Assembly (NCBI GenBank): GCA_041663185.1
Contig: JBAZQY010000001.1
Location: forward strand, 233,087-297,086
Origin: Minisyncoccota bacterium
GTDB taxonomy: Bacteria > Patescibacteriota > Minisyncoccia > Phycocordibacterales > UBA9973
Length of the DNA stretch: 64,000 nucleotides
Direction of reading: 5' to 3'
The position numbers and the translations under genes were made by a program. Below are positions 1 to 14,750 of the stretch, piece after piece (positions within the stretch are counted from its first letter, which is position 1; every line of letters begins with the position of its first letter). The notes beneath the pieces are model-generated. The model was given only the letters and a program-made list of their open reading frames with translations. It did no database searches and was not told where the DNA came from.

Positions 1-11
1 TTGTATTCATT

Positions 12-914
12 ATGCTTCTCTTAATGCAAGCCAAAAAGATCGCTTCAAATATGTCCGGCGAAATTGGCCAGTCAATTACAAAAGGCATCGCCGCAGTCGG
101 AGGAATAGCCCTAGGTGGCGCAGCATTAGGTGCAGCAGCTCTTGGAAGGGGAACGGTTGGAGGATTTTTAAAAGGTTCTGCTACTGGAGATACTGCAGCC
201 CAGAGATATGCTAGGGGTGAATCAAAAAATAGATGGGATAGTATTAAGGGAAGAATTGGAAGTAGTTTGGGTGGAGTTCAAATACAACAAGGAGTTGGGC
301 GTATTTTAAATAGAGGAACAAATAGAATGGAAGAGTCAGCACATGGTAGACATCGTTTAGATGAAGTTTCTGGACAAATATATCGTGGAAGAAAGTGGTT
401 AGATTTAAATGGAACAGAAAGAGATGCTGTACGAGAAAGAATTAATCAAAATGAAGCAATACGTTTAATGGGACCACGATTTGGAACTAGAACATGGGCA
501 CAGCTTAGCGCAGCTGAAAGGGGTGATGTAAATGATTACATAACAGATCACGGAGTAAATGAAGCTCAAAATTTAGTTAGAAACGCACAAAGAAAAGATA
601 ATCCTGTTAATAAAGTACTACAGTCTTCGGCATTTGGTAGTTATGATATAAGAAATCTTGCTGAACTTATTGCGAATGAACATGATAGTGGTTTGAGTAA
701 GTTTGGTGTTGGTTTAATTTCAACAATAAGCAAAGGAATGCGTGGTGGGCTACAACAAGCAGGAATAAATTTTGGTAAAGGACAAGGAGAATTTATGAAA
801 GATCTTGGACATACTATCACGGAAGCACTCAAAGAAACTTCTGTTAAAGTTGATCTAACAAATCTAGGAAAAGAAGAAAAGGGCGAAGCTAAAAAAGGAA
901 GTGGCCATCATTAA
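12..914 (+). CDS. hypothetical protein with Gly/Ala-rich N-terminal segment; open to the window edge, so possibly N-terminally truncated
   Basis: 300-aa ORF with no upstream in-frame stop before position 1; first gene of the T4SS-like cluster on the + strand. Confidence 0.4.
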   Translation: MLLLMQAKKIASNMSGEIGQSITKGIAAVGGIALGGAALGAAALGRGTVGGFLKGSATGDTAAQRYARGESKNRWDSIKGRIGSSLGGVQIQQGVGRILNRGTNRMEESAHGRHRLDEVSGQIYRGRKWLDLNGTERDAVRERINQNEAIRLMGPRFGTRTWAQLSAAERGDVNDYITDHGVNEAQNLVRNAQRKDNPVNKVLQSSAFGSYDIRNLAELIANEHDSGLSKFGVGLISTISKGMRGGLQQAGINFGKGQGEFMKDLGHTITEALKETSVKVDLTNLGKEEKGEAKKGSGHH

Positions 915-932
915 ATAAGTAATAAATAAAAA

Positions 933-1886
933 ATGGATCAATTACAATTACAGCAAAAAATAGCAGAATATTTTGAAAAACTTCCTAAAGAGGTTCAGGG
1001 GATTTTTTCATCTATGACCTGGATGGAAACATTAAAAAATATTAGTACTAAATATAACCTAAATGAAAAACAGGTAGAAATTATCGGAACCGAAACAACA
1101 TTGGTTTTATTAGGTATAATTCACCTGGAGGAATATGTGAATATCTTGCATAAAGAATTAAGTTTAAATGAAGAAGTTTTTAACACAATGATTGATGAAA
1201 TTGATAATAATATTTTTAAAACAATCAAAAATCAACTTGTTGATACATATGAGGCAAATGTTTCATCTTTAGATAAAGAAAATGATAATGAAGAAAAATT
1301 AGATGAACGTTTTATAGGTTTACCTGAAGAAGTTAGGGAGGCAATAATTAAATCTAACTGGAAGAAAAAACTTTATGAAATTGCGTCAAAATATAAGCTC
1401 AATATCGAACAAATGGGGATTTTAGAAGATATGACAGTGAAAGTAATGACAAACGCAATCCACCCTGATAAATACGAAGGGGAATTAACTTCAAAAATAA
1501 CAATTTCCAAAGAAGACATTTCGAATCTTATAAAAGATGTAAACGAGAACATTTTAAGAAAGATCAGAAACATAATGGAAATAAAAACTGAAACAAAAAT
1601 TCCAGAAGTAAAAGATGAGGTTCCTCTGCCACCATATGCAATAAGTAGTAAGCAGGAAGTAGCAAGGAAGAAGGAAGAAGGGGATTCAATTCCTGTTACT
1701 CCAAAAATTGAGGCTCCAGTTGATAATTCTAAAAATATAATGAGTATTGTTGAGGAAAAATTAAAAAGTGCCACAATGAGTGATCATACAATTTCTGATT
1801 ATTCAGCTCCTAAAGTAAATAATACTCCTTCAAATAACCCAAACCCTTCAATTAAATCATCAGACCCTTATAGGGAAGCGTTTTAG
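933..1886 (+). CDS. hypothetical protein
   Basis: 317-aa ORF, charged and coiled-coil-like; no recognisable motif. Confidence 0.45.
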   Translation: MDQLQLQQKIAEYFEKLPKEVQGIFSSMTWMETLKNISTKYNLNEKQVEIIGTETTLVLLGIIHLEEYVNILHKELSLNEEVFNTMIDEIDNNIFKTIKNQLVDTYEANVSSLDKENDNEEKLDERFIGLPEEVREAIIKSNWKKKLYEIASKYKLNIEQMGILEDMTVKVMTNAIHPDKYEGELTSKITISKEDISNLIKDVNENILRKIRNIMEIKTETKIPEVKDEVPLPPYAISSKQEVARKKEEGDSIPVTPKIEAPVDNSKNIMSIVEEKLKSATMSDHTISDYSAPKVNNTPSNNPNPSIKSSDPYREAF

Positions 1887-2378
1887 ATTAGTAGAAAGTA
1901 GTATGTAGTAAGTAGTAAGGAAAATAAGTAACAGGTAGAAAGTAGTAAGTAGTATGGAAGAAAATAAAACTAAAATTAGTTCTTTTACTTCCCTGTTGGC
2001 ATGGCAGGAAGCGCACAAACTTACTCTTTTAATATATAAAAGATTACCAGAGTTTCCTGTTTATGAAAGATTTGGATTATGTGACCAATTACGTAGAGCT
2101 GTATCTTCAATATCCGCTAATATTGCCGAAGGTTTCGGAAGACACACATTAAAAGACAAGGTTCATTTTTATTATATTGCAAATGGTTCTCTTACTGAAA
2201 CGCAGAATCATCTTTTAGTTGCAAGAGATTTAAAATATTTAAATGATGAAAATTTTAAAAAAATAGCTGAACAAACGATTATCACTAGTAAACTTATCAA
2301 TGGTTTGATAAAATCAATTAATAGCAAGACGTAATTTTTCGTCCCTTACTACTTGCTACCTACTACCTACTACATTTA
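1887..2378 (+). repeat. palindromic hairpin element (GTAGTA-rich left arm, CTACTA-rich right arm) enclosing the four-helix-bundle ORF
   Basis: left arm gtagtatgtagtaagtagtaagg at about 1897-1919 is complementary to right arm cccttactacttgctacctactacctactac at about 2344-2375. Confidence 0.55.
1954..2334 (+). CDS. four-helix-bundle protein of the 23S rRNA intervening-sequence (IVS) protein / Avd-like family
   Basis: 126 aa; motifs LLAWQEAHKL, ANIAEGFGR and NHLLVARDLKYL typical of TIGR02436-type IVS proteins; sits in the loop of a long inverted repeat. Confidence 0.75.
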   Translation: MEENKTKISSFTSLLAWQEAHKLTLLIYKRLPEFPVYERFGLCDQLRRAVSSISANIAEGFGRHTLKDKVHFYYIANGSLTETQNHLLVARDLKYLNDENFKKIAEQTIITSKLINGLIKSINSKT

Positions 2379-2379
2379 C

Positions 2380-2799
2380 ATGCAATTCAAAGTCCCACAA
2401 TTTATTGATATCCAAGATAAACTATTTGGCCCTTTCACTTTTCATCAATTCGCATATCTTGTCGGCGGAGCTGGGATAATCTTCGTCATTTATAAACTAC
2501 TCCCATTGTGGATTGGTATTTTTTTAATGATTCCAATTGCTATTTTGTCCGCTTTACTTGTCTTTTATAAAATAAATGGCAAACCATTTATTTTCTACCT
2601 CCAAGCGGGTATTAGCTACCTTATTTCTAGTAAATTATATATTTGGAAACAAAGATTAGTAAAACCGGGCGATAAAACTAAAGAAGAAGAGGCTCCTACT
2701 CCTTCTTTGGTTTCGGTTCTTCCAATGACCTCCGAGAATAAGCTCAAAGACCTCGCTTGGAGCTTGGATGTACAAGATAAAGATGAAAGTAGCAAGTAG
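2380..2799 (+). CDS. PrgI-family membrane protein (conjugation/T4SS-associated)
   Basis: MQFKVPQFIDIQDKLFGPFTFHQFAYL followed by two TM helices; start moved to the internal Met because the annotated N-terminus is a translated repeat arm; immediately upstream of VirB4. Confidence 0.6.
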   Translation: MQFKVPQFIDIQDKLFGPFTFHQFAYLVGGAGIIFVIYKLLPLWIGIFLMIPIAILSALLVFYKINGKPFIFYLQAGISYLISSKLYIWKQRLVKPGDKTKEEEAPTPSLVSVLPMTSENKLKDLAWSLDVQDKDESSK

Positions 2800-2945
2800 A
2801 ATGTAGTAAGCAAAAAGAGGAAATAAAAAAATATGTTAATAGAATAAAAAATGGTAAAATATAACAAGTAGTAAACAGAAAGTGGTAAGCAAAAAGTATA
2901 AAATTAAATTCCCTTACTACCTACTACCTACTACATACTACACAT
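2800..2945 (+). repeat. second copy of the GTAGTA/CTACTA palindromic element (no ORF)
   Basis: gtagcaagtagaatgtagtaagcaaaaagagg ... cccttactacctactacctactacatactac. Confidence 0.55.
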
Positions 2946-3599
2946 ATGGCAATTAGTGCAAAAAGTTCTCAAGAATTTGTCCCAATTAAAGAAGTTCGAA
3001 ATGGAATCATTATTCTTAAAGATGGTGGTCTTCGGGCGATACTACTTGCTTCATCATTAAACCTTTCTCTTAAATCGGCCGACGAACAAACTGCCATAAT
3101 AAATGAATTTCAAAATTTTTTAAATGGTTTAGATTTTCCTATTCAAATTGCTATGCAATCTCGCCGACTAGATATCCGACCATATCTTTTGTCTCTAGAA
3201 GCCAGATTAAAAGACCAAGTTGAACCACTTCTTAAAATACAAACCAGAGAATACATAGACTTCATCCGATCATTCACCGAAGAAGTAAATATTATGACTA
3301 AGACTTTTTTTATTGTCGTTCCTTATAGTCCAACTGTTATAAAATCGGGAAATAAGATAGTCGAAGGTCTGCTTGGAGGAGGCACTCCTAAAAAGCAAGT
3401 GGAGGATACAAAGAAAGCCATTGACCTCGCCTCATTTGAAGAAAAGAGAACTCAACTTGATCAACGTGTCGGGGTTATTGCCGGAGGATTGGGGAGAATT
3501 GGTATTCGAACATCTGAACTTAAAACAGATCAGGTAGTTGAACTTTTTTATAAAACATTCAATCCAGGAGATATTAGTCAGGGAATTAAATTACAATAA
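2946..3599 (+). CDS. VirB4/TraC-family N-terminal domain protein (split VirB4, part 1)
   Basis: KEVRNGIIILKDGGLRAILLASSLNLSLKSADEQ resembles the N-terminal domain of Gram-positive-type VirB4 (PrgJ/TcpF-like); stop is 1 nt before the ATPase ORF. Confidence 0.6.
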   Translation: MAISAKSSQEFVPIKEVRNGIIILKDGGLRAILLASSLNLSLKSADEQTAIINEFQNFLNGLDFPIQIAMQSRRLDIRPYLLSLEARLKDQVEPLLKIQTREYIDFIRSFTEEVNIMTKTFFIVVPYSPTVIKSGNKIVEGLLGGGTPKKQVEDTKKAIDLASFEEKRTQLDQRVGVIAGGLGRIGIRTSELKTDQVVELFYKTFNPGDISQGIKLQ

Positions 3600-3600
3600 T

Positions 3601-5436
3601 ATGGGAATATTTTCATCACTATTTGGAAAAAAGGGAGATAGCGCTAAAAATAAAAGCGTCGTTATGCCGATTTTACCAAGTGAAATATATAAGGCGGCAA
3701 CACTTGAACTTCAAGATATTATCGCTCCTTCTGCTCTCCAAATAACTCCTAAGTCATTAAATTTGGGTGATAAAATTGCTAGAACATTCTTCGTTATTTC
3801 ATATCCAAGGTACCTCAGTGATAATTGGTTCTCACCAATCATCAACTTGGATAAGGTTTTTGATGTCTCTATTTTTGTTCATCCAATCGAGACTGCTGAA
3901 ATACTCCGAACTTTTCAGAAAAAAGTTGCAGAAGTTCAGAGTCAGATTTCTATTCGTGAATCAAAAGGCCTTGTTCGTGATCCAATGCTAGACACCGCCT
4001 ACAAAGATTTGGAAGATTTACGAGATAATTTGATGCAAGCTCAAGACAAAATGTTTGACGTTGGTATTTATATTACTGTCTATGCTGATAATGAAAATGA
4101 TTTATTTAAAATTGAAAATGAAATCAAATCTCTTCTTGATTCAAAATTAGTTTACTTAAAACCAGCCTTATTCCAACAAAATGAAGGATTCAAAAGTGTT
4201 ATTCCACTTGGTACGGACATTCTTGGTATTCATCAAAAGCTCAATACAGAGCCAATTTCAAGCGTCTTTCCATTCGTTTCTTTTGATTTGACGGAAGATA
4301 AGGGAATACTCTATGGAGTTAATCGTCATAATTCTAGTTTAATTCTTTTTGATAGATTTTCTTTACCAAATTATAATTCGATTACATTCGCAACTGCTGG
4401 AGCTGGTAAATCATATGCGACAAAACTTGAAATTATTCGTACTTTGATGTTTGATACTGAAGTTATCGTCATCGATCCTGAACGTGAATACGAATACTTG
4501 GCTGAAGCTATTGGTGGACGATATTTTAATATTGCTCTTTCCTCAGAGCACCATATTAATCCTTTCGATCTGCCGATTCCAACCGGCGAAGAGACAGGAG
4601 CGGATGTCCTACGAGCTAATACTATAAACCTAGTCGGATTATTCCGCATAATGCTTGGAGGTTTAACCCCAGAAGAAGATTCAATTATCGATAGTGCTAT
4701 TACTGAAACATACGCTCTAAAAGATATCACCGCCAATTCAAATTTTATGAATATCGAGCCACCAATGTTATCTGATTTTGAAGTGGTTTTGTCGGGCATG
4801 CAGGGGAGTGAATCACTAATGCAACGTTTGATTAAATATACCCATGGATCTTGGGCTTCATTCTTAAATCAACCATCAAATGTAGATATTAATCGCAAGT
4901 TTATTGTCTTTTCTGTTCGAGATATGGAAGATGAACTCAAACCAGTCGCAATGTATATTGTTACTCACTATATCTGGAATGCTGTTCGAAAAAATATAAA
5001 GAAAAGATTACTAGTAGTAGATGAGGCCTGGTGGATGATGAAATCAGAAGATACCGCTTCTTTCCTCTACTCAATTGCCAAGCGTGGAAGAAAATATTGG
5101 TTGGGACTTGCCACTATTACTCAAGATGTGGGAGATTTCATGAAAAGTGCTTATGGCATCCCAATCGTGACTAACTCGTCTATCCAATTACTTCTTAAAC
5201 AATCTCCAGCAACCATAGATGTTTTACAGAAAACATTCAACCTAACAGATGAGGAGAAATACTTATTACTCGAAGCCAATGTTGGAGAGGGAATATTCTT
5301 TGCCGGTTTAAAACACGTAGCCATCAAAACAATTGCTTCATATACAGAGGATCAAATTATTACTTCCGACCCTTCACAAATCTTAGCCATCAAAAAAGCC
5401 AAGGAAGAGTTATTATCTTCAAATAGCAGTAATTAG
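3601..5436 (+). CDS. VirB4-like T4SS ATPase (split VirB4, part 2)
   Basis: Walker A FATAGAGKSYA, Walker B LLVVDEAWWMM; ORF is open upstream to 3538 in another frame relative to part 1. Confidence 0.85.
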   Translation: MGIFSSLFGKKGDSAKNKSVVMPILPSEIYKAATLELQDIIAPSALQITPKSLNLGDKIARTFFVISYPRYLSDNWFSPIINLDKVFDVSIFVHPIETAEILRTFQKKVAEVQSQISIRESKGLVRDPMLDTAYKDLEDLRDNLMQAQDKMFDVGIYITVYADNENDLFKIENEIKSLLDSKLVYLKPALFQQNEGFKSVIPLGTDILGIHQKLNTEPISSVFPFVSFDLTEDKGILYGVNRHNSSLILFDRFSLPNYNSITFATAGAGKSYATKLEIIRTLMFDTEVIVIDPEREYEYLAEAIGGRYFNIALSSEHHINPFDLPIPTGEETGADVLRANTINLVGLFRIMLGGLTPEEDSIIDSAITETYALKDITANSNFMNIEPPMLSDFEVVLSGMQGSESLMQRLIKYTHGSWASFLNQPSNVDINRKFIVFSVRDMEDELKPVAMYIVTHYIWNAVRKNIKKRLLVVDEAWWMMKSEDTASFLYSIAKRGRKYWLGLATITQDVGDFMKSAYGIPIVTNSSIQLLLKQSPATIDVLQKTFNLTDEEKYLLLEANVGEGIFFAGLKHVAIKTIASYTEDQIITSDPSQILAIKKAKEELLSSNSSN

Positions 5437-5480
5437 GGGGCACTTATGAGCGGTTGTTGGGTGAGTAAAGTTATTATATA

Positions 5481-6485
5481 ATGTATAGAGTGAAATTAAT
5501 GAAAATAAAAATCTTCCTCGTTGGACTTTTTATCTTAGGAATAGTCAATATTCCATCTATTTCTTTTGCTGAAACACAAATTGAAATTCAGGAAGGAGAA
5601 GTGAACGTCGAAATAATTCCAAATAACCCAGAACCATATCAAGATATTAAAATCAACATCTCAAGTTATGCTACTGATTTAAACAAGGCCATTATCACTT
5701 GGGAAACATCAAAAGGGGTAGTTCTTTCTGGTATTGGTAAAACAAGTTATTCTTTTAAAACAGGAGGGATTGGATCATCTACTGTTTTTGATATTAATAT
5801 CACTCCTGTGGGTTCTATGAGTACAATTAATAAAATAATTGTAATTACTCCGTCTGAAGTTGAGATTATGTGGGAATCTGCTGATGGTTATACTCCTCCA
5901 TTTTATAAAGGAAAGTCCTTACCAATTAGTGGTAGTACTGTCCGAGCTGTCGCCATTCCAAATACAAATACTATAAAATCGGGTAGCGGGAGTATAACTT
6001 ATACTTGGAAGAGTGGAGATGAAACACAGTTAGGAGCTTCGGGTTATAATAAAAATTATTATGAATTTAAAAATAGTATGTTTGAAGATGTTAGTGAAGT
6101 AACAGTTATGGCTTCATCAGTCAGTGGAAATTATGGAGCCGAAAAGACTATTTCTATTCCTATGTATAAACCTAAAATAGTTTTTTATAAAAAATCCCCA
6201 ACCGAAGGAATTCTTTATAGTAAAGCTCTTGATAAAGAAATAGTAATGCCAGAAGACGAAATGACAATTGTCGCTGAACCATATTTCGTCTCTTTAAAAG
6301 GCAATGAGAATGATTTCTCTTACAGATGGCAAATAAATGGACAGGGAATAGAAACCCCTTCTCGTAAAACAGAACTAACTATTCGGCCAACTTCACGTGG
6401 TGGATATGCAACAATAAATATGATAATTGAAAATGCCAATGAATTATTCCAACAAGTTAGTAATTCATTAAAACTAATTTTATAA
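5481..6485 (+). CDS. secreted hypothetical protein (signal peptide)
   Basis: N-terminal hydrophobic signal ending in ISFAET; follows VirB4. Confidence 0.5.
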   Translation: MYRVKLMKIKIFLVGLFILGIVNIPSISFAETQIEIQEGEVNVEIIPNNPEPYQDIKINISSYATDLNKAIITWETSKGVVLSGIGKTSYSFKTGGIGSSTVFDINITPVGSMSTINKIIVITPSEVEIMWESADGYTPPFYKGKSLPISGSTVRAVAIPNTNTIKSGSGSITYTWKSGDETQLGASGYNKNYYEFKNSMFEDVSEVTVMASSVSGNYGAEKTISIPMYKPKIVFYKKSPTEGILYSKALDKEIVMPEDEMTIVAEPYFVSLKGNENDFSYRWQINGQGIETPSRKTELTIRPTSRGGYATINMIIENANELFQQVSNSLKLIL

Positions 6486-6486
6486 T

Positions 6487-8118
6487 ATGAAAAAATTCTC
6501 ATTATACACATTAATATCCGTAATAATTATTAACTTTTTCTTACCGTTTGGTATTAGTTTGAGTAATAATTTAGTCGAGAGAAAAATAGCAGAAGCGGCA
6601 AATGATTGTGTAATTTCTTCAGCTTTTTGGGACCCATCGGGGGAGCAAGCTGATAAATTCTATAGAGAAGGAGCGACAACAGCAAATATCAAAGTAAAAT
6701 CAAAAAATTGTGTCGGGGTAACAGGAATAAATTTAACTATTTACGAATCCGATGGTTGGGGTACCTTTAAGGATGATGTTTGGGATGATTCTGGATTGGA
6801 TGATAGAGAAATATCTATTCCATCTGATAATTTCGCAGTAAGATTATTATTGGGTGAAGAGGATTGCGAAACTAAGCTTACGGGTGGTTTTAAGTTTGAT
6901 TGCGATTTGTATTTTAAATTTAAAAGTGGAACGGATGTTATTTATAGTTCTGTTAATATTGGTTCAAATGGTGATACTGCAGGTAGTAGCGACCCGGGTT
7001 GGCTTTGGTATGGTTGTGATTACACAACCGGAGAACTTTGTGACCAAGATGGGCAATTTTTAGAAGTAATTGCCCTGGGAAACAATGATGACTCAGTAAA
7101 TTTTGATGCATTAGATCCCATTAATTTAGATAATTCATATAATTTATTGGCCCCTATTGGTGATTTTACAAAAGCACCTGATAATATGGGGGATTATTTC
7201 CAATTAATATTTGAACTAGCGATTGCTCTCTGTGCAGTTCTTGCTGTTGTAATGATTGTTATTGGTGGAATTCAATATATGGGGAATGAGTCCATTTTTG
7301 GAAAGACTGAAGCTAAAAGTAAAATAAAATATGCTATTGGTGGTCTATTAATTGCTCTTGGGGCTTATGCATTACTAAACACAATTAATCCAGATTTACT
7401 CGGTGGTAAGGGTGTAACAATAGATCAGGTTAGTGCTGAAATAGTTCGTGATCGTGCTTCAGATCCTGCTTTTATGCAAAATATTGATAGTTTTGACACT
7501 TCTAATATAACAATAACTCCTTCAGATTATAGTGATCCAACCTTTCTTGGATATATGGGGCACCAACAGGGTAGCGCAGGAGCTTCAGCAATCCTTTGGT
7601 CAGCTCATAAAGGATATACAAGTGTTCCAGCTGATAATCCATTCACAAAAAGTGATATCAATAGAAATATGAAAGGAAACTTTAATACAACAAGTGCTCA
7701 AAAAACAATAGGTACATCAGTACTTACCCCCGACAACTTTTTGAAATATTGGGCAACTAAAGTTGCGGCAGTTAAAAATGAAACTACCCCAGTAATTCCA
7801 TCAATGATAGAAAGCGAACTCGGAAAAGTCGCTAGTGAAACTGGAGTTGATATAGCAACACTAAAAACAATCTGCCGAATTGAATCAGCCGGAGGATGCA
7901 CCAATGATTCATCTATTACTACAGTTAATAACCTAGGATATGCTGGATTATTCCAATTAAGTAATAAGGTTTATCAAAAAAACACTGGTGTCTGGGAAGC
8001 ATACAAAAAAAGTGATGGGGTTCTCCTTGATGCTTACCACAATGCTTTTGTTGCGGCCAAATATTTCAGCGTAAACTTAAGTGGAATAAAGAAGAATTGG
8101 TCAAAAATAAATAATTAA
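6487..8118 (+). CDS. membrane protein with two central TM helices and a C-terminal lytic transglycosylase (SLT/VirB1-like) domain
   Basis: signal peptide; TM pair around LAIALCAVLAVVMIVIGG and IGGLLIALGAYALL; SLT motifs RIESAGG, GYAGLFQL and AYHNAFVAAKYF. Confidence 0.55.
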   Translation: MKKFSLYTLISVIIINFFLPFGISLSNNLVERKIAEAANDCVISSAFWDPSGEQADKFYREGATTANIKVKSKNCVGVTGINLTIYESDGWGTFKDDVWDDSGLDDREISIPSDNFAVRLLLGEEDCETKLTGGFKFDCDLYFKFKSGTDVIYSSVNIGSNGDTAGSSDPGWLWYGCDYTTGELCDQDGQFLEVIALGNNDDSVNFDALDPINLDNSYNLLAPIGDFTKAPDNMGDYFQLIFELAIALCAVLAVVMIVIGGIQYMGNESIFGKTEAKSKIKYAIGGLLIALGAYALLNTINPDLLGGKGVTIDQVSAEIVRDRASDPAFMQNIDSFDTSNITITPSDYSDPTFLGYMGHQQGSAGASAILWSAHKGYTSVPADNPFTKSDINRNMKGNFNTTSAQKTIGTSVLTPDNFLKYWATKVAAVKNETTPVIPSMIESELGKVASETGVDIATLKTICRIESAGGCTNDSSITTVNNLGYAGLFQLSNKVYQKNTGVWEAYKKSDGVLLDAYHNAFVAAKYFSVNLSGIKKNWSKINN

Positions 8119-8122
8119 AATC

Positions 8123-9613
8123 ATGCCTAAAAAAACAATTATCATTTTCATAACAGTATTTGTAATCATCGGATTAATCGTCTTGGGAATTTATTTATTT
8201 TCAAAAAAAGACAAGGATGGCACTGATAATGGAACAACTCCTTGGTATCAAAATTTTAATCCTTTCGGAACAGGGACCGAAATACCAAGTGGTAATGAAA
8301 ATAATGGAATAGGAAATAATAATCAGGGTCAAACAGGAAGCCTGACAGACACAGGTTCTTCTAGATTTTACCAAGTAACCGATTTTGCAGTTGCTGGAGC
8401 TACTTTCTTAGAAGATACAAGGCCAGTAATAGTTCCCGAGGGGCAAGAGAATCAGCCAAAAGAAATCAAGACCTTAATTTCAGTCGATACGAAAGAGGGG
8501 CGAAAAGAAATTCAAAATATTTTAAATGAAACATTATTACCCAAAACTCCACTTGTTGCCGATGGAAACTTTGGGAAATTAACAACCAAAGCCATTGAAG
8601 ATTTTCAAAAATTAAAAAATTTACCAATCACCGGTAAAATTGACGCGGAAACAGCTCCATATTTTACAAAGACAATAACTGATTTAACGAATGCTCCAAA
8701 ATACGAACAGGCTCCATCTTTAAGATATGTAGAAAGAAAGAACGGACACATGTATAAAATGTTTCTCGATACTAAAGAGAAAACCAAAATTTCTAATTCA
8801 ACAATCCCTGGTATTTATGAAGCATTTTTTGACACAACAGCCCAAACAGTTATTTATCGATATTTATCTGAAGATAAAAAGATTAATAGTTTCATGGCAA
8901 CCCTAGGTGCACCAAAAGGGGAATTTTTGCCTCAGAATATTTCTGATTTGAGTGTTTCGCACGATAAAACAAAATTTTTCTATCTCGTAGAAAATGGTGG
9001 AGGAGTTACTGGAACGACTGGATTGTTTGGTAATACAAAAAGGGAAGTAGCATTCAATTCTCCTTTTACAGAATGGCTAAGTCAATGGACTTCTGGGCAA
9101 AAAGTATTTTTGACAACAAAAGCCTCATATGGAGTTAGTGGTAGTATTTTTATGCTAGATACTACAAAAAAAACACTCTCAAAAGTATTTGGCGGGGTTA
9201 TGGGTCTTACTACACTAGTAAACCCTAACGGGTCTCTTATTTTGTACAGTTATTTTTCAAAAACAGGTCCACAACTAGGAATTTTTGATATCGCTCAACA
9301 CTCCACCAGAAATTTGGATATTTATAGTTTGCCTGAAAAATGTGTCTGGGCTAATGATAATGTAAGTATTTATTGTGCTGTGCCTAATGTTATTGTCGGG
9401 AATCAATATCCAGATTATTGGTATCAAGGATTAATTTCTTTTGATGATTATTTTATAAAAATAAATACCGAGACCGGAAATAAAACAACAATTGCAAACT
9501 CCATAAATGAAACAGCTATAGATGGAACGCATTTGTTCTTGGATCGCACAGAAGAAAATTTGTTTTTAATAAACAAAAAAGATTCAACCTTGTGGAGCCT
9601 AAATATTAAATAA
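8123..9613 (+). CDS. membrane-anchored protein with a peptidoglycan-binding domain
   Basis: N-terminal TM; PG_binding_1-like LVADGNFGKLTTKAIEDFQKLKNLPITGKIDAETAPYF. Confidence 0.55.
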   Translation: MPKKTIIIFITVFVIIGLIVLGIYLFSKKDKDGTDNGTTPWYQNFNPFGTGTEIPSGNENNGIGNNNQGQTGSLTDTGSSRFYQVTDFAVAGATFLEDTRPVIVPEGQENQPKEIKTLISVDTKEGRKEIQNILNETLLPKTPLVADGNFGKLTTKAIEDFQKLKNLPITGKIDAETAPYFTKTITDLTNAPKYEQAPSLRYVERKNGHMYKMFLDTKEKTKISNSTIPGIYEAFFDTTAQTVIYRYLSEDKKINSFMATLGAPKGEFLPQNISDLSVSHDKTKFFYLVENGGGVTGTTGLFGNTKREVAFNSPFTEWLSQWTSGQKVFLTTKASYGVSGSIFMLDTTKKTLSKVFGGVMGLTTLVNPNGSLILYSYFSKTGPQLGIFDIAQHSTRNLDIYSLPEKCVWANDNVSIYCAVPNVIVGNQYPDYWYQGLISFDDYFIKINTETGNKTTIANSINETAIDGTHLFLDRTEENLFLINKKDSTLWSLNIK

Positions 9614-9618
9614 GAATA

Positions 9619-9650
9619 AAAAAATCCAGGTCTAGCCTGGATTTTTTTAT
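9619..9650. terminator. bidirectional rho-independent terminator
   Basis: aaaaaatccaggtctagcctggattttttt hairpin between convergent genes. Confidence 0.6.
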
Positions 9651-9651
9651 T

Positions 9652-10119
9652 CTATATAGAATTATCAACATATTTTATAACAACCCGACGATTCGGACCA
9701 TAACCCTCTGATTCCGTTTTTATATCTTTTGCTCCTTCCAAGAACATATGGATGATTCTTCTTTCGTAGGCAGGCATTGGATCAACTTCAATGTTGCTTT
9801 TAAAATATCTAGCCCGTTCGGCCATCATATGGGCGATATTTTTTAAATTCTCAAAACGCTTTTTTTGATAACCATTAACATCAATAAATATATTGGGGCC
9901 TTTTTCTTCTTCTTTTAATCCTTTTTCTATAATTTTTTGAACAAGATGATTCAAAGAGCGAAGAGTCTCGCCATCTCTTCCAATAATAAACCCCGAATCC
10001 GGAGTTTCGATCATACACCAAGTCATACCTCCCTCATCGGAGAATTCACACCGAGAAATAGCACATGAGGTGTGTTTAAAAATCTGTTCTATTGTCTCTT
10101 TTATCTTATCTTTATACAT
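9652..10119 (-). CDS. jag: Jag/KhpB RNA-binding protein (KH + R3H domains)
   Basis: R3H signature ERRIIHMFL and GYGPNRRVVIKY; lies downstream of yidC as in the canonical oriC locus. Confidence 0.75.
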   Translation of the reverse strand: MYKDKIKETIEQIFKHTSCAISRCEFSDEGGMTWCMIETPDSGFIIGRDGETLRSLNHLVQKIIEKGLKEEEKGPNIFIDVNGYQKKRFENLKNIAHMMAERARYFKSNIEVDPMPAYERRIIHMFLEGAKDIKTESEGYGPNRRVVIKYVDNSI

Positions 10120-10124
10120 AAAAA

Positions 10125-10886
10125 TTAATTTGGGGTGTGTGTCAATTTACGACGGATATACCATTCTTGAACGATAGTAAATATATTACTCACAATCCAA
10201 TATAATGCAACTGCGGCTGATATTTTCCAAGCAATAAAAGCAATAAAAACCGGTAAAATATATTTAACATTCATTTGCATGCTTTCAGAGAGTTGTTCTT
10301 GAAACGTCTTTGGGGCTGGGACTTCTGTTGTTCCTTTTACAATTTCAACCTTTGGTTTAACTGGTGATGATAAATAACCTTGAATAAACTGAGTCACCCC
10401 AGCAAAAATACCGAGGAAAAGGCTCTTACTTCCCATTTCTATTAAACCAAGGAAATTGGTGTGCAAACTATCTGGTGTTTGGATAAATGAGTATATCAGA
10501 CTTGGATCAACCGCAAATGGTTTATAAAAAACATAATACAACGCAAAAATAACCGGGAGTTGAAGAATAACGACCAAACAACCAGAAAATGGATTTGTCC
10601 CATATTTTTTATATAATTCAAAGGTTTTTTTAGCTTGTTCTTCTTTATTGGGGAAATCTTTTTTAATCTGCTTAAGCTCGGGTTCCATTTTTTTCATTAA
10701 TATTTGGCTTTTAATGGACTTGCGGGTAAGGGGAGCAAGTATTAATTTTACGATTATTGTCACTAAAATAATAGCAAAACCAACATCACCAAAAGTGATA
10801 TTGTCTATTATAAATATAAGAATATTGTATATGGGTTGGTAAAAGACACTATTCCACAGAGCTTGCATTTCCCTATTGTAGCACAA
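10125..10886 (-). CDS. yidC: membrane protein insertase YidC (short form)
   Basis: multi-TM with PFSGCLVVILQLPVIFALYYVF; position in the rnpA-yidD-yidC-jag order. Confidence 0.85.
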   Translation of the reverse strand: MCYNREMQALWNSVFYQPIYNILIFIIDNITFGDVGFAIILVTIIVKLILAPLTRKSIKSQILMKKMEPELKQIKKDFPNKEEQAKKTFELYKKYGTNPFSGCLVVILQLPVIFALYYVFYKPFAVDPSLIYSFIQTPDSLHTNFLGLIEMGSKSLFLGIFAGVTQFIQGYLSSPVKPKVEIVKGTTEVPAPKTFQEQLSESMQMNVKYILPVFIAFIAWKISAAVALYWIVSNIFTIVQEWYIRRKLTHTPN

Positions 10887-10984
10887 GGAAGCAAAAAGTA
10901 GAAAGTAGTATGTAGAAAGATTGGTTTGAAATATTTTATATTATGTTTTTGTTTTTTCCCTTACTACCTACTACTTACTACCTA
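10887..10984 (+). repeat. third copy of the GTAGTA/CTACTA palindromic element
   Basis: aagcaaaaagtagaaagtagtatgtagaaag ... cccttactacctactacttactacctattac between yidC and yidD. Confidence 0.55.
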
Positions 10985-11191
10985 TTACTTAATTGGGTCG
11001 TAATGATTTTTTTGCCAAGGATGACAACGAGAGATCCGAACAACACCCCGCCAAAGGCCAGTCCAGACTCCATATTTTAAAATGGCTTGTTTAGTATATT
11101 CTGAGCAGGTTGGCAAAAAGACACAAGATGAGTGAGATCGAAGTGGTATTTTTTGATAAATATTTATTAACCAAAGTAATATTTTTTTCAC
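10985..11191 (-). CDS. yidD: membrane protein insertion efficiency factor YidD
   Basis: FLPTCSEYT ... RCHPW signature. Confidence 0.8.
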   Translation of the reverse strand: MKKILLWLINIYQKIPLRSHSSCVFLPTCSEYTKQAILKYGVWTGLWRGVVRISRCHPWQKNHYDPIK

Positions 11192-11208
11192 TTAATTATA
11201 AAAATTTA

Positions 11209-11532
11209 TTATTTAATAAAGTGAGTTTTTTCTAAAATAAAAACTATATCTTCTTTAATTTCTTTAGCGCCAACAAAAAGAGCTTGTTTTTTATAAAAAA
11301 ATATTCCACTTCCACCTAAAATAGGAATGGAGCGTAAGACATTGTAACCAATTCTTCTGAATTTATTTCTCTTAACAGCGTTTTTAAAAATACCCTTAGG
11401 GGTCACAAAAGCAAAACTCGGTCCACCGCTGTTTTTAAAAGAAAAAGAAAAAAGGCTAGTTGAAAAAGTTTTTCCCTCTTTTAATAATAGTTGGAAATCT
11501 TTTTTTGTCAGCCTCTTTTTTTTTGAAAGCAT
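11209..11532 (-). CDS. rnpA: RNase P protein component
   Basis: KNAVKRNKFRR motif; located between rpmH and yidD. Confidence 0.8.
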   Translation of the reverse strand: MLSKKKRLTKKDFQLLLKEGKTFSTSLFSFSFKNSGGPSFAFVTPKGIFKNAVKRNKFRRIGYNVLRSIPILGGSGIFFYKKQALFVGAKEIKEDIVFILEKTHFIK

Positions 11533-11534
11533 AT

Positions 11535-11675
11535 TTATTTTTTTATTGACACATTGACTCTACCTTTTCGGCGACGAGCAGTATTTACCCTTCTACCATT
11601 TTGTGTTTTGTTGCGAACAAGAAAGCCGTGAGTCTTGGCTCTTTTTCTTCTATTTGGTTGATATGTTTGAGACAT
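11535..11675 (-). CDS. rpmH: 50S ribosomal protein L34
   Basis: minus-strand translation [46 protein letters not shown]; below the ORF-track size cutoff. Confidence 0.85.
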
Positions 11676-11801
11676 AAGGGCAATATATACTATTTAAGCT
11701 AATATTGCAATCTCTATCATAAAACATATCCACACGATATCAACATATTAATTAAGGTATTTTATTGTTGGAGAATTAAAAAACAATGTATAATACGCAC
11801 T

Positions 11802-13169
11802 ATGAATAACACAAGAGAGCTTTGGAACCGATGTTTAGGAGAAATTGAACTAAGTATTTCAAAGGCTAATTTTACTACTTGGTTTAAAAATACTTCAATC
11901 ATTAAAGAAGATGCTGGGGTAATATATGTCGGTGTCCCAAATGAATTCGTTAAAGATTGGCTGTATAACAAATTTCATAAACTTATCCTCAAAACCCTGA
12001 TTAGTAATGAGGAAAACATCAGAAATGTTGAATATATAATACACAAACAGGAACAAAAATATGAACAAGCTATTAAAAACAGTGACATTGTTAATATAAA
12101 ATCTCCAATAAGCAATAACAAAGAACTTCCGTTGAATGATTTATATATTAATAAAGAAGACAACTTAAATCCAAAATATAATTTTAATTCTTTTATTGTT
12201 GGTCCTTTTAATGAGTTGGCTTACGCTGTAGCACAAGCCATAATTGCAAACCCTGGACAAAACTACAACCCATTTTTTGTTTATGGTGGAACTGGTTTGG
12301 GTAAAACCCATATGATTGAAGCAATAGGGAACACAATAAAAATCAAACATCCAGGTAAAAAAGTTTATTATGTTAGTTTGGAAAAATTTGCAATTGATTA
12401 TATTAATTCAATTCAAAACAAAAACCCAAACTCCTTTAAAGAAAAGTATCGTAAATATGATGTTATTATTATGGATGATATTCAATTTATTTCCGGTAAA
12501 GACAAAACCCAAGAAGAATTATTCCATCTTTTTAATACCTTATATGAAAACAATAAACAAATAATCTTCTCTTCTGATAAGCACCCAAACTTTATCCAGG
12601 GATTAGAAGAAAGACTCCAGTCGCGCTTTGCTTCTGGAATGACTGTTCAGATAGTTGAACCAGATTATGAATCTCGTGTCGCAATTATAAAAGCAAAATT
12701 CGAATCGAGTAGTTGTATTATGGAACCAGAAGCTATTTCCTATTTAGCTGAAGCTTTAAATGGAAATATCCGTGAGCTAGAAGGAAGTTTAAATACCATC
12801 ATCTGTCAATCACAACTAAAAAATAAGTCTTTAACCCTACTAGAAATCAAAACCCTTATTAAAAACAATATCCGACCCAAAAAGACTGTGGCGATTAAAG
12901 ACATTGTCCAAATTGTCGCTGATCAATATGGAATTCCCGAGGAGGTCATCTATGAGAAAACAAGAAGAAAAGAAATTGTCCGAGCTCGTCAGGTTGCAAT
13001 GTATTTATTACGAGAAGATTTTAATGTTTCCTATCCACTTATAGGTAAAAAGTTGGGGGACAGAGATCATACAACTGTTATTCACTCACACCTAAAAATA
13101 AAAAGTGATTTAAAAACTGACCCATCATTATTACAAGAGATTGAAAAAATAAGAATTATGTTTAAGTAG
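11802..13169 (+). CDS. dnaA: chromosomal replication initiator DnaA
   Basis: Walker A GGTGLGKTH; domain IV ARQVAMYLLRE ... DHTTVIHS. Confidence 0.95.
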   Translation: MNNTRELWNRCLGEIELSISKANFTTWFKNTSIIKEDAGVIYVGVPNEFVKDWLYNKFHKLILKTLISNEENIRNVEYIIHKQEQKYEQAIKNSDIVNIKSPISNNKELPLNDLYINKEDNLNPKYNFNSFIVGPFNELAYAVAQAIIANPGQNYNPFFVYGGTGLGKTHMIEAIGNTIKIKHPGKKVYYVSLEKFAIDYINSIQNKNPNSFKEKYRKYDVIIMDDIQFISGKDKTQEELFHLFNTLYENNKQIIFSSDKHPNFIQGLEERLQSRFASGMTVQIVEPDYESRVAIIKAKFESSSCIMEPEAISYLAEALNGNIRELEGSLNTIICQSQLKNKSLTLLEIKTLIKNNIRPKKTVAIKDIVQIVADQYGIPEEVIYEKTRRKEIVRARQVAMYLLREDFNVSYPLIGKKLGDRDHTTVIHSHLKIKSDLKTDPSLLQEIEKIRIMFK

Positions 13170-13382
13170 TGGTAATAAGTCTGTTGAAAACTTGGGTTTA
13201 TAAAAAAATAATTTGTGGAAAAAAAATCATTTATAAAAAAATAAAAAGTAATTAACAAATTAAATTAAAAACAAAAAAAATAAAACAAAAAATATCTTTA
13301 TATTAAAAGACAAAAAAGAAATCCACATATTAACACCCATAATAATAGTAGTAAGTATTAATAAGATAATTTATAACATATT
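13170..13382. promoter_or_regulatory. candidate oriC: AT-rich dnaA-dnaN spacer with DnaA-box-like 9-mers
   Basis: tttgtggaaaa (revcomp TTTTCCACA) and aaatccaca; long A/T tracts; a further tatccaca lies upstream of dnaA near 11727. Confidence 0.5.
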
Positions 13383-14480
13383 ATGAAAATAGAATGCTCC
13401 ATAGATAAAATAAAAAATGCCCTAATCTCTGTTGAAAGAATAACCGGAAAAAACTTAACCCTCCCGGTTCTTGGATCAGTACTTTGGGTCGCAACCAACA
13501 AAACACTAAAACTTCGAGCCACGAACCTAAATATTGGAATAGAAGTTGAAATCCCAGCCCGGGTTGAAAAAGAGGGTGTTGTTGCGGTTCGAGGAGATGT
13601 TCTTTCTTCTTTATTTTCTATTTTACAGGGTGATTTAATTGTTAAATTTGAATTAATAAATGGTAATTTACTTGTTAAAACAAAAACTAGTACAATTTTA
13701 CTAAAAAGTATTTCACATGAAGATTTTCCCACAATTCCAATTGTTGAAGGGGAGAAACTTTTGGTTCCGAGTAAAAAGTTTATTGAAGGAATAAAATCTG
13801 TTTATTATAGTGCCTCTGTTTCCGAAGTAAAACCAGAAATTGGAAGCGTCTATATTTATCCAGAGGAGGACATGCTGGTCTTTGTTTCCACAGACTCGTT
13901 TCGTTTGGCAGAGAAAAAAATAAAAATAAAACAAAAATTATCTTTTGGTGGAATATTAATTCCATTTAAAAATGTTGTCGAAATTATTAAGGTTTTTGAT
14001 GGAATGAATGATGACATAACTATAACTCTTCAGAAAAATCAAATTTCTTTTAAAACAGAAAATATATATTTAACCTCACGCGTTGTTGATGGAAGCTTTC
14101 CTGATTATAAACAAATCATTCCCAAAAACCCCACCACCAAATCAGTTGTTTTAAAACAAGATTTTATTTCCTCACTTAAAATTTCTAATATTTTTTCCGA
14201 TAAATTCAATCAAATTGTTTTAACCATTAGACCAGAAGAAAAAATTTTTGAAGTTGAATCTAAAAATACTGATATTGGAGAAAACACCACCCTTCTGGCT
14301 GGAGCTCTATCTGGAGAAGATGTATCGGCCAATTTTAATTATAAATATGTCCTAGATTGTTTTCAATCAATTGCTGGAGATAGTTTAAGTATTGAATTGA
14401 GTGGTAATAGTAAACCAATGATTATTAGAGGTGTCGGCGACCCATCATTTATGTATTTGGTCATGCCGATGAATCGATAA
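13383..14480 (+). CDS. dnaN: DNA polymerase III beta sliding clamp
   Basis: 365 aa; position after dnaA; three-domain clamp length and an N-terminal region typical of DnaN. Confidence 0.9.
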   Translation: MKIECSIDKIKNALISVERITGKNLTLPVLGSVLWVATNKTLKLRATNLNIGIEVEIPARVEKEGVVAVRGDVLSSLFSILQGDLIVKFELINGNLLVKTKTSTILLKSISHEDFPTIPIVEGEKLLVPSKKFIEGIKSVYYSASVSEVKPEIGSVYIYPEEDMLVFVSTDSFRLAEKKIKIKQKLSFGGILIPFKNVVEIIKVFDGMNDDITITLQKNQISFKTENIYLTSRVVDGSFPDYKQIIPKNPTTKSVVLKQDFISSLKISNIFSDKFNQIVLTIRPEEKIFEVESKNTDIGENTTLLAGALSGEDVSANFNYKYVLDCFQSIAGDSLSIELSGNSKPMIIRGVGDPSFMYLVMPMNR

Positions 14481-14486
14481 AATACT

Positions 14487-14750
14487 ATGGACTACAACCA
14501 CATAACAAGTTTTTTAGATAAGTTTAAAAAACTACTTTTTCAAAAAGAGGAAATTAAAAAAATTGTAACCCAAACAATAAGAGAAGAAATTAATCATCAA
14601 GTAGATGATAATTTAATAAAAATAAAAGATGGTTACATTTTTATACAAGTATCCCCGGTTCTTCGTAGTGAAATTATGATTCATAAACAAAGAATTTTAA
14701 TAAAACTAAAATCACTCGTGCCTGACATCAACTTTTTAGATATTAAATAG
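14487..14750 (+). CDS. small DUF721/DciA-like protein
   Basis: 87 aa immediately after dnaN; IKIKDGYIFIQVSPVLRSEIMIHKQRIL pattern. Confidence 0.45.
   Translation: MDYNHITSFLDKFKKLLFQKEEIKKIVTQTIREEINHQVDDNLIKIKDGYIFIQVSPVLRSEIMIHKQRILIKLKSLVPDINFLDIK

Follow-up and report, generated by a model that had tools for sequence, protein, structure and literature searches.

A probable non-conjugative type IV secretion system encoded next to dnaA in a Minisyncoccota bacterium

A row of genes resembling a secretion apparatus lies beside dnaA in a Minisyncoccota bacterium, which raises the question of what machine these genes encode and what it is used for. The window analyzed here is a stretch of 64,000 nucleotides (64 kb; contig JBAZQY010000001.1, positions 233,087 to 297,086 of the forward strand), and the gene cluster in question lies within its first 9,613 nucleotides (nt). 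In NCBI, proteins identical to those encoded here are filed under 'Candidatus Paceibacterota bacterium', which places the genome in the Patescibacteria class Paceibacteria. An original prediction, made from the sequence alone, had read the cluster as a type IV secretion system (T4SS) of the Gram-positive type that is probably not used for conjugation, in agreement with the literature on Patescibacteria (PMC12102498, PMC10633639). These bacteria account for a large part of the diversity of bacteria and grow attached to other microbes, and their T4SS is the first one for which it was shown that the bacterium carrying it cannot survive without it.

We consider it likely that the cluster encodes a non-conjugative Patescibacteria T4SS of known type, with a VirB4 from the clade nested in the monoderm class MPF_FATA and with the layout of Paceibacteria, which serves contact with a host cell. 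Patescibacteria T4SSs were published in 2023 and 2025, including their proximity to the origin and the lack of a relaxase (PMC10633639; PMC12102498). As system type, origin proximity and relaxase lack are thus already on record, the finding, although real, is new only in a few details that have not been reported. That such a system exists was established before; what the locus provides is a clean and compact Paceibacteria example in which every gene could be assigned or delimited.

VirB4 and its translocon partners

A VirB4-family ATPase is the only universal marker of T4SSs. The ATPase of the cluster reached 371.6 bits on the NCBIfam model NF045971 (VirB4-like conjugal transfer ATPase, CD1110 family; cut-off 325) and was also matched by TIGR00929 (VirB4_CagE, E 1e-28), PF19044 (TraG P-loop, E 1e-23) and other VirB4/TraC models. 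Its Walker A motif (ATAGAGKS at residue 264) and Walker B motif (LLVVDE at residue 470) are both intact. The family match and the motifs exclude an FtsK/HerA identity, and the ATPase is classified as VirB4. For the comparison with relatives, the species genomes of GTDB were searched with VirB4. This gave at least 594 matches, of which the best 80 were kept, all of them from metagenome-assembled genomes (MAGs) of the Paceibacteria type (Paceibacteria/Nomurabacteria). VirB4 in these 80 loci is 75-94% identical to the window protein. Look-ups by exact sequence gave no record for VirB4 or for the 334-aa protein of the cluster. T4SSs have been described across 2,407 Patescibacteria assemblies, with a VirB4 clade nested in MPF_FATA and, in the vicinity of virB4, TrsD, PrgI, VirB6, VirB1 and VirB2-like components (Quinonero-Coronel et al. 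2025, PMC12102498). That the VirB4 of the window belongs to this clade is suggested indirectly by its identity to the 80 MAGs and by its best curated family, which is an MPF_FATA prototype. As to further T4SS parts, VirB6-like, VirB3/PrgI, TrsD, VirB2-like hairpin and VirB1-like SLT components are all present nearby.

VirB4 had originally been described as two open reading frames (ORFs). This holds for the ATPase, but the N-terminal ORF proved to be a natural TrsD-like gene. It was matched by the TrsD/TraD model NF041427 (E 4.4e-6) and aligns to the VirB4_plasma profile at positions 102-233 and to the CD1110 profile at positions 2-118, the remainder being covered by the VirB4 ORF. Judging from these alignments, the TrsD-like protein is the equivalent of a detached VirB4 N-terminal domain. 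In the window, its stop codon TAA (3597-3599) is followed by the virB4 start codon ATG at 3601. The two genes are separate ORFs in 80/80 loci. Their spacing ranges from about 1 to 497 nt, and L067 and L080 have an additional gene inserted between them; we therefore regard the arrangement as a conserved natural split and rejected a frameshift as its cause. The TrsD split is known from pGO1-type systems, and 2,272 TrsD homologues have been reported from Patescibacteria (PMC12102498).

The VirB3-like and VirB6-like translocon partners are both encoded alongside VirB4. The PrgI-family ORF recognized originally was confirmed by PF12666 (E 1.4e-9). Its product has transmembrane (TM) segments at 28-46 and 52-70 (148-aa reading), and the gene occurs in 76 of the 80 loci. 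The orthologues are 130-147 amino acids (aa) long. The ATG at 2380, which gives 139 aa, is the likely start codon, and the alternative TTG at 2353 falls inside the arm of an inverted repeat. In two loci, the PrgI gene lies on the strand opposite virB4 (L027:8861-9926, L057:8770-9186), in L027 together with the TrsD gene, which may reflect a local inversion or a mis-assembly.

The absence of a recognizable VirB6 was also part of the original prediction, and this point had to be revised. The first ORF, taken for a gene of a Gly-rich protein, is present, but it is not a whole gene. The contig L001, which matches window positions 1..2312 with 0 mismatches, contains the complete gene of 924 codons, starting 1.86 kb upstream of the window. 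The encoded protein comprises a signal peptide, two beta-sandwich domains (41-290), 5-6 hydrophobic helices (319-650) and a Gly-rich helical cytoplasmic tail, and only this tail is held by the window. Its VirB6 fold was recognized by fold comparison only. Pfam searches of the 924-aa protein, of 46 orthologues and of homologues with a precomputed PF19590 flag were negative, and a profile search of the family against PDB sequences found no VirB6. A VirB6-like gene occupies this position in 64/80 loci. From fold and gene context, the 924-aa protein reads as an 'extended VirB6-like' polytopic membrane protein.

Conjugation, DNA uptake and descent of the cluster

No type IV coupling protein (T4CP; VirD4 or TcpA) was detected in the 54 kb downstream, among the eight window ORFs of at least 500 aa outside the cluster, either by the Pfam scan or by inspection of two unassigned ORFs for Walker motifs, as had been stated originally for the window; the two unassigned ones are low-complexity or non-ATPase proteins. 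Also, no T4CP is encoded in about 10 kb upstream of the cluster in relatives, where only uvrD, ksgA and genes of secreted or anchored proteins were found. No relaxase was seen among the cluster genes, ten scanned window ORFs outside the cluster and the upstream genes of relatives, window ORFs below 500 aa being not all annotated, and no integrase was seen among the scanned window genes and the upstream genes of relatives. According to published data, a T4CP is rarely found near a Patescibacteria T4SS, and only 103 of 3,035 Patescibacteria genomes have a relaxase (PMC12102498).

Where contigs allow, the gene order in relatives is VirB6-like, 317-aa protein, PrgI, TrsD, VirB4, 334-aa protein, hairpin protein and peptidoglycan-binding protein, followed by jag/yidC/yidD/rnpA, dnaA, dnaN and the gene of a penicillin-binding protein. 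This block is syntenic in about 50-80 Paceibacteria species. The same neighbors on the dnaA side were found in 49-59 of the 80 loci, with the remainder mostly ended by contig edges; in four loci (L015, L043, L050, L056) no dnaA neighborhood was seen. The published neighbors of T4SS genes in Paceibacteria are dnaA, dnaN, rnpA and ksgA (PMC12102498). Median amino acid identity to the window proteins is 78.5% for VirB4, 65.1% for DnaA, 59.5% for DnaN, 59.4% for TrsD and 48.5% for PrgI. VirB4 is more identical than DnaA in 51/51 loci, a difference somewhat inflated by the choice of loci via VirB4 similarity. VirB4 is thus under very strong purifying selection, unusually tight for a secretion ATPase. 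Because synteny is conserved and VirB4 is more conserved than DnaA in all these loci, the cluster is a vertically inherited core system of the chromosome and not a mobile element.

These data also bear on an origin from a conjugative element (an integrated conjugative element or a plasmid) that landed near the origin and left a remnant. The closest curated family is indeed that of the CTn2/CD1110-type conjugative VirB4, and conjugative plasmids of Gram-positive bacteria are known to carry TrsD and PrgI. However, at least 50 species share the gene order and the flanks, including the adjacent dnaA, divergence is slower in VirB4 than in DnaA, and the G+C content of the cluster (0.34-0.35) is the same as that of the flanks. 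Also, the scanned genes include no integrase, relaxase or T4CP, and published VirB4 trees indicate largely vertical descent within classes (PMC12102498). Such a remnant is already largely refuted and in our opinion very improbable.

A second alternative is a DNA-uptake machine like Helicobacter ComB or archaeal Ced, which would draw in DNA from the environment or from a host to obtain nucleotides or genes. The component set (VirB2-like, VirB3, VirB4, VirB6 and a hydrolase, with neither T4CP nor relaxase) resembles that of ComB, and the ATPase has a weak match to CedB in NCBIfam (28 bits, E 6e-7). Candidate phyla radiation (CPR) bacteria do not synthesize nucleotides (PMC10633639), and in the class ABY1 the T4SS is co-located with comF, recG and radA (PMC12102498). 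Against uptake, the best family of the ATPase is the conjugative VirB4 (372 bits) and not CedB. In Southlakia, competence relies on type IV pili and ComEC, and deletion of comEC ends competence but not viability, whereas the homologous T4SS cluster is essential for epibiotic growth (PMC10633639, PMC12857230). Separate type IV pilus genes (PilB, PilM) are found in our window, too, so that the genome has a type IV pilus system apart from the T4SS, as in Saccharibacteria. We therefore consider DNA uptake as the function of the cluster to be unlikely.

Pilin-hydrolase fusion and wall-associated proteins

The 543-aa protein, which would be the VirB2-like subunit of a T4SS for host-cell contact, consists of a signal peptide, a beta-sandwich ectodomain (~40-215), a VirB2/T4SS_pilin-like TM hairpin (~216-305), a helical domain and an SLT/GH23 domain (~449-540). 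The TM hairpin and the SLT lytic transglycosylase had both been proposed from the sequence, and both assignments were upheld. PF18895 (T4SS_pilin) matches the hairpin in 57 of 63 positional orthologues (best E 9e-10) and TrbC/VirB2 (PF04956) in 19 of 63, and the NCBI record names the fusion protein 'pilin'. The C-terminal domain was sub-threshold for the Pfam SLT family in the window protein (E 0.14) and above the cut-off in homologues 42-52% identical across the domain. By structural comparison, it has the SLT fold, with GH23 character and a catalytic Glu-Ser pair (E466-S467); this pair and the motif G-L-F-Q are conserved in the family. The ectodomain gave weak Foldseek matches to carbohydrate-binding domains of Wzt (probability 0.97, E 0.09). 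Signal peptide and first ectodomain of the fusion protein (6487..6920) are homologous to those of the VirB6-like protein (L001:1882-2310), with 29% identity over 144 aa (E 8e-6) and shared cysteines. Thereby, two different T4SS subunits display the same surface domain.

In the 64-kb window there is a single hairpin gene, and relatives have one in 67 and two in 4 of 71 loci. The protein has a median length of 432 aa and is never a stand-alone pilin of about 100 aa. Conservation across the orthologues is limited to the signal peptide and to the hairpin up to and including the motif '...LNTINPxLL', right after which the junction to the enzyme is fixed. The C-terminal domains of the 63 orthologues were assigned to NlpC/P60 (13), VanY (9), YkuD (5), Amidase_5 (4), Peptidase_M15_4 (3), SLT_2 (3), SLT (2), CHAP (2), SLT_3 (1), SLT_4 (1) and Amidase_2 (1), and some database homologues carry an added GDSL esterase. 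Proteins 40-48% identical to the N-terminal domain of the window fusion have VanY, YkuD or NlpC/P60 in place of SLT. No fewer than five enzyme classes occur among the 12 kept loci whose VirB4 is most identical to that of the window (87-94%), and the closest kept relative (94% VirB4, 88% DnaA) has VanY where the window genome has SLT. The enzyme class switches between genomes whose VirB4 proteins are 85-94% identical. A pilin fused to a peptidoglycan enzyme of changing class appears to be unreported, as the literature searched treats pilins and VirB1-like hydrolases separately.

Speculatively, the fast turnover of the enzyme class, with no immunity gene beside it, may point to the wall of the host as the target instead of the own one. 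Tentatively, the only VirB2-like subunit of Paceibacteria might be a modular 'armed pilin', in which a conserved signal peptide, a sugar-binding-like ectodomain and the hairpin bear an exchangeable peptidoglycan enzyme; the pilin would then evolve fast and be tuned to the wall chemistry of host or prey, so that the T4SS would drill the wall of the host rather than that of its owner; we hold this to be a possibility on the doubtful side. If enzyme switching does reflect host-wall specificity, it would provide a handle on the host range of uncultured CPR bacteria that can be read from sequence, and a testable model of how a T4SS breaches the envelope of a host.

Two further conserved products face the wall. 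The 334-aa protein has one hydrophobic segment, located N-terminally (11-29), and is found in 76/80 loci with a constant length of about 328 aa. Pfam matches of its family are weak throughout (Ig_3 in 8, BiPBP_C in 7 and PKD in 4 of 48 members), and a profile search gave no PDB sequence match. It is probably an anchored or exported accessory component with three immunoglobulin (Ig)-like beta-sandwich domains. A VirB8-like identity of this protein was dropped, as there were only Ig-like hints. The 496-aa protein was correctly named a peptidoglycan-binding membrane protein at the outset. It has an N-terminal TM segment (5-23), a low-complexity linker and a PG_binding_1 domain (PF01471, E 3.7e-10), and occurs in 66/80 loci. 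Its family profile matched only TolB chains in PDB, and these weakly (best 7mx5, E 1.3e-3), which makes a TolB-like beta-propeller in the C-terminal part probable.

As most products of the cluster are extracytoplasmic and wall-associated, it could also be a mere envelope or adhesion device, in which the hairpin only anchors a wall-remodeling enzyme, the cluster forms a surface structure used in attachment or in turnover of the own wall, and no substrate is moved. This is consistent with the finding of no substrate or coupling protein, and with secreted proteins being conserved upstream, too. On the other hand, the presence of VirB3, VirB6 and an intact VirB4 under stronger constraint than DnaA speaks for an active translocon or pilus assembly, and if the hydrolase acted on the own, conserved wall, it would be hard to see why its class changes so often among close relatives. 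We judge a device of this kind to be improbable.

For a T4SS serving host-cell contact, the following mechanism can be proposed. VirB6, VirB3, TrsD and a VirB4 hexamer would form the membrane translocon and its motor, and VirB4 would pull the VirB2-like hairpin protein out of the membrane into a short pilus-like or channel structure. The termini of VirB2/TraA lie outside the cell, which serves as the model for the topology of the hairpin protein. Accordingly arranged, the hairpin termini and fused domains would be exposed, and the fused enzyme, here a lytic transglycosylase, would open peptidoglycan. The Ig-like and the peptidoglycan-binding/propeller proteins might brace the structure in the wall. 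Such a machine would serve contact with a host cell, by protein export or uptake of host material, and not conjugation. In a review, a T4SS plus pilus was proposed as the conduit by which material is exchanged with the host or taken up from it, and tubular structures at a parasite-host interface were proposed to be T4SS pili (preprint 10.64898/2026.06.21.733656).

Several points weigh against this view. A hairpin that carries extra domains of ~215 aa and ~240 aa may not polymerize like VirB2, and its PF18895 match in the window protein (E 7e-4, 20.0 bits) is below the Pfam gathering score of 26.6. No VirB8-like protein (NTF2 fold) was recognized in the cluster, the bitopic candidates looking Ig-like and PG_binding_1 plus TolB-like, respectively. 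The function in host contact is inferred by analogy to Saccharibacteria, which form a different class. Also, the search for T4CP and relaxase covered the window, within the annotation limit given above, and the upstream regions of relatives, not the rest of the genome.

Layout, surroundings and comparison with known systems

The original prediction had described a co-directional string of six or seven genes. All ORFs named in it were found on the + strand, but their number is nine, since the ORF 1954..2334 had been missed. They fill window positions 1..9613 with intergenic spacers of 1-146 nt (Table 1).

Table 1. Features of the T4SS cluster in window coordinates
Feature	Position	Strand	Basis
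VirB6-like protein, 3' end of gene	1..914	+	ORF 12..914 = residues 625-924 of the 924-aa protein; window part ~622-924
317-aa predicted cytoplasmic protein, DPYRE C-terminus	933..1886	+	Alignment of 31 positional orthologues
Intervening sequence (IVS)-like insert	1885..2377 (ORF 1954..2334)	+	PF05635, TIGR02436, inverted repeats
PrgI-family (VirB3-like) two-TM membrane protein	2380..2799 (alternative start 2353)	+	PF12666
TrsD/TraD-like protein, 217 aa	2946..3599	+	NF041427
VirB4 ATPase, 611 aa, predicted motor of the system	3601..5436	+	NF045971, PF19044
Ig-like anchored/exported protein (putative), 334 aa	5481..6485	+	N-terminal hydrophobic segment, weak domain matches
Pilin-hairpin/lytic transglycosylase fusion, 543 aa	6487..8118	+	PF18895, SLT fold
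PG_binding_1 bitopic membrane protein, 496 aa	8123..9613	+	PF01471, TM 5-23
Bidirectional intrinsic-terminator-like hairpin	9613..9653	.	41 nt, 18-bp stem, 5-nt loop

The 317-aa protein between VirB6 and PrgI is present in 52/80 loci. It contains two helical repeats of ~90 aa, a disordered linker and the C-terminal DPYRE motif, in which D311, P312 and Y313 are invariant; it has no TM segment and no signal peptide. No credible match was obtained in Pfam (all family members), NCBIfam or the PDB profile search. The DPYRE C-terminus could be a docking or export signal.

The ORF missed originally encodes a four-helix bundle of the 23S_rRNA_IVP family (PF05635, E 3.7e-34; TIGR02436, E 2.3e-33). It is enclosed by inverted repeats of ~30-37 nt (1891-1964 and 2337-2375; 87% complementary, 423 nt apart), and RNA folding closes the flanks of the insert into a stem of ~32 bp (z -3.1). 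Genes of 23S rRNA intervening-sequence proteins occur in 13/80 loci at three different intergenic positions, and six other copies have inverted repeats of differing sequence (L067:9542-9989, L073:5720-6265, L034:6291-6727, L039:6460-6913, L037:8360-8760, L080:9577-9966). By these sequence features, the segment is an IVS-like foreign insert and not a part of the T4SS. It looks like a mobile IVS-like module, and cleavage of the stem, if it occurs, could divide the transcript of the operon.

Upstream of the cluster, relatives have uvrD, ksgA and genes of an anchored protein of ~300 aa, a secreted protein of ~750 aa and a variable secreted protein, followed by the VirB6-like gene. The three genes between ksgA and the VirB6-like gene are co-directional, and their products belong to no Pfam families (L003:715-5042, L011:1334-5327, L081:233-4728, L001:2-1786); the variable protein has a CARDB-like domain and Cys/Asp-rich repeats. 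These three anchored or secreted proteins may belong to the same surface apparatus.

Downstream, jag, yidC, yidD and rnpA follow on the - strand and then dnaA (11802..13169) and dnaN. The distance from the cluster end to the dnaA start is 2.19 kb, very close to the 2 kb given originally. The hairpin in front of the convergent jag is a near-perfect palindrome with an A-run before and a T-run after the stem, and from its sequence it likely ends the cluster as a bidirectional terminator. Overall, promoter-like and terminator-like sites were at chance level, with this hairpin as the sole notable one. DnaA boxes were not enriched (27 found, 21.8 expected, chance level); neither a minimum or switch of the GC skew at dnaA nor a cluster of DnaA boxes around it was found in window 1..14500. 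An origin position near the cluster is therefore deduced from synteny only. Provided that replication starts at dnaA, the entire T4SS operon is transcribed towards the origin and head-on to the leftward replication fork. The type IV pilus genes mentioned above encode a PilB-type T2SSE ATPase (21389..23089, -) and a PilM fusion (49085..50704, +). In addition, the window encodes two large secreted proteins, one of 659 aa (23254..25233) with a long low-complexity tail rich in Ser/Thr/Pro/Gly and one of 1268 aa (25392..29198) with a DUF11 domain; each of them may be a surface or adhesion protein.

Regarding known systems, the 924-aa protein differs from R388 TrwI and Agrobacterium VirB6 by an identity of only 9% (no detectable sequence similarity), the lack of a TrbL Pfam match, an N-terminal two-domain beta-sandwich ectodomain and a helical cytoplasmic tail of ~270 aa. 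With the conjugative T4SSs of MPF_FATA (pGO1/pSK41 Trs, pCF10 Prg, CTn2, pIP501), the cluster shares a CD1110/CTn2-type VirB4, TrsD (pGO1 subclass), PrgI, a membrane-anchored SLT-type hydrolase (as PrgK, TraG and TrsG) and the lack of an outer-membrane core. In contrast, those systems have a T4CP, VirB8-like proteins and a location on mobile elements and lack VirB2-like pilins, none of which holds here; they also have a relaxase, of which none was seen among the genes scanned here. Helicobacter ComB and archaeal Ced are likewise T4SS-derived machines without coupling protein or relaxase, but ComB has the outer-membrane parts VirB7-10 and Ced uses CedA/CedB; the evidence from Southlakia parts T4SS essentiality from DNA uptake.

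The fusion protein resembles polymorphic effectors, such as the evolved VgrG/PAAR of type VI secretion systems or Rhs/CdiA-type toxins, in having a conserved N-terminal delivery or anchor module, a fixed junction and swappable C-terminal enzymes. This resemblance is one of logic only. Unlike in those effectors, all variable domains act on peptidoglycan, the next gene is conserved and no variable immunity gene is present, and the carrier is a T4SS pilin-like hairpin.

In the cluster SEML1_0004-0019 of Southlakia epibionticum (Wang et al. 2023, PMC10633639), six small genes each encode a separate pilin and the three-domain lysozyme protein is a separate one, too, in contrast to the one pilin-domain gene in our window, which is fused to an ectodomain and to the hydrolase, and NTF2-like and 998-aa proteins take the place of the 317-aa DPYRE protein between VirB6 and PrgI. 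Neither cluster includes a relaxase or T4CP. Both have a TrsD-like protein beside VirB4, PrgI/VirB3 and a VirB6-like protein of large size. Each also has a lysozyme-like hydrolase and an exported Ig-like protein downstream of virB4, as well as pilin domains of PF18895, and both are located next to the dnaA/dnaN (recF) region.

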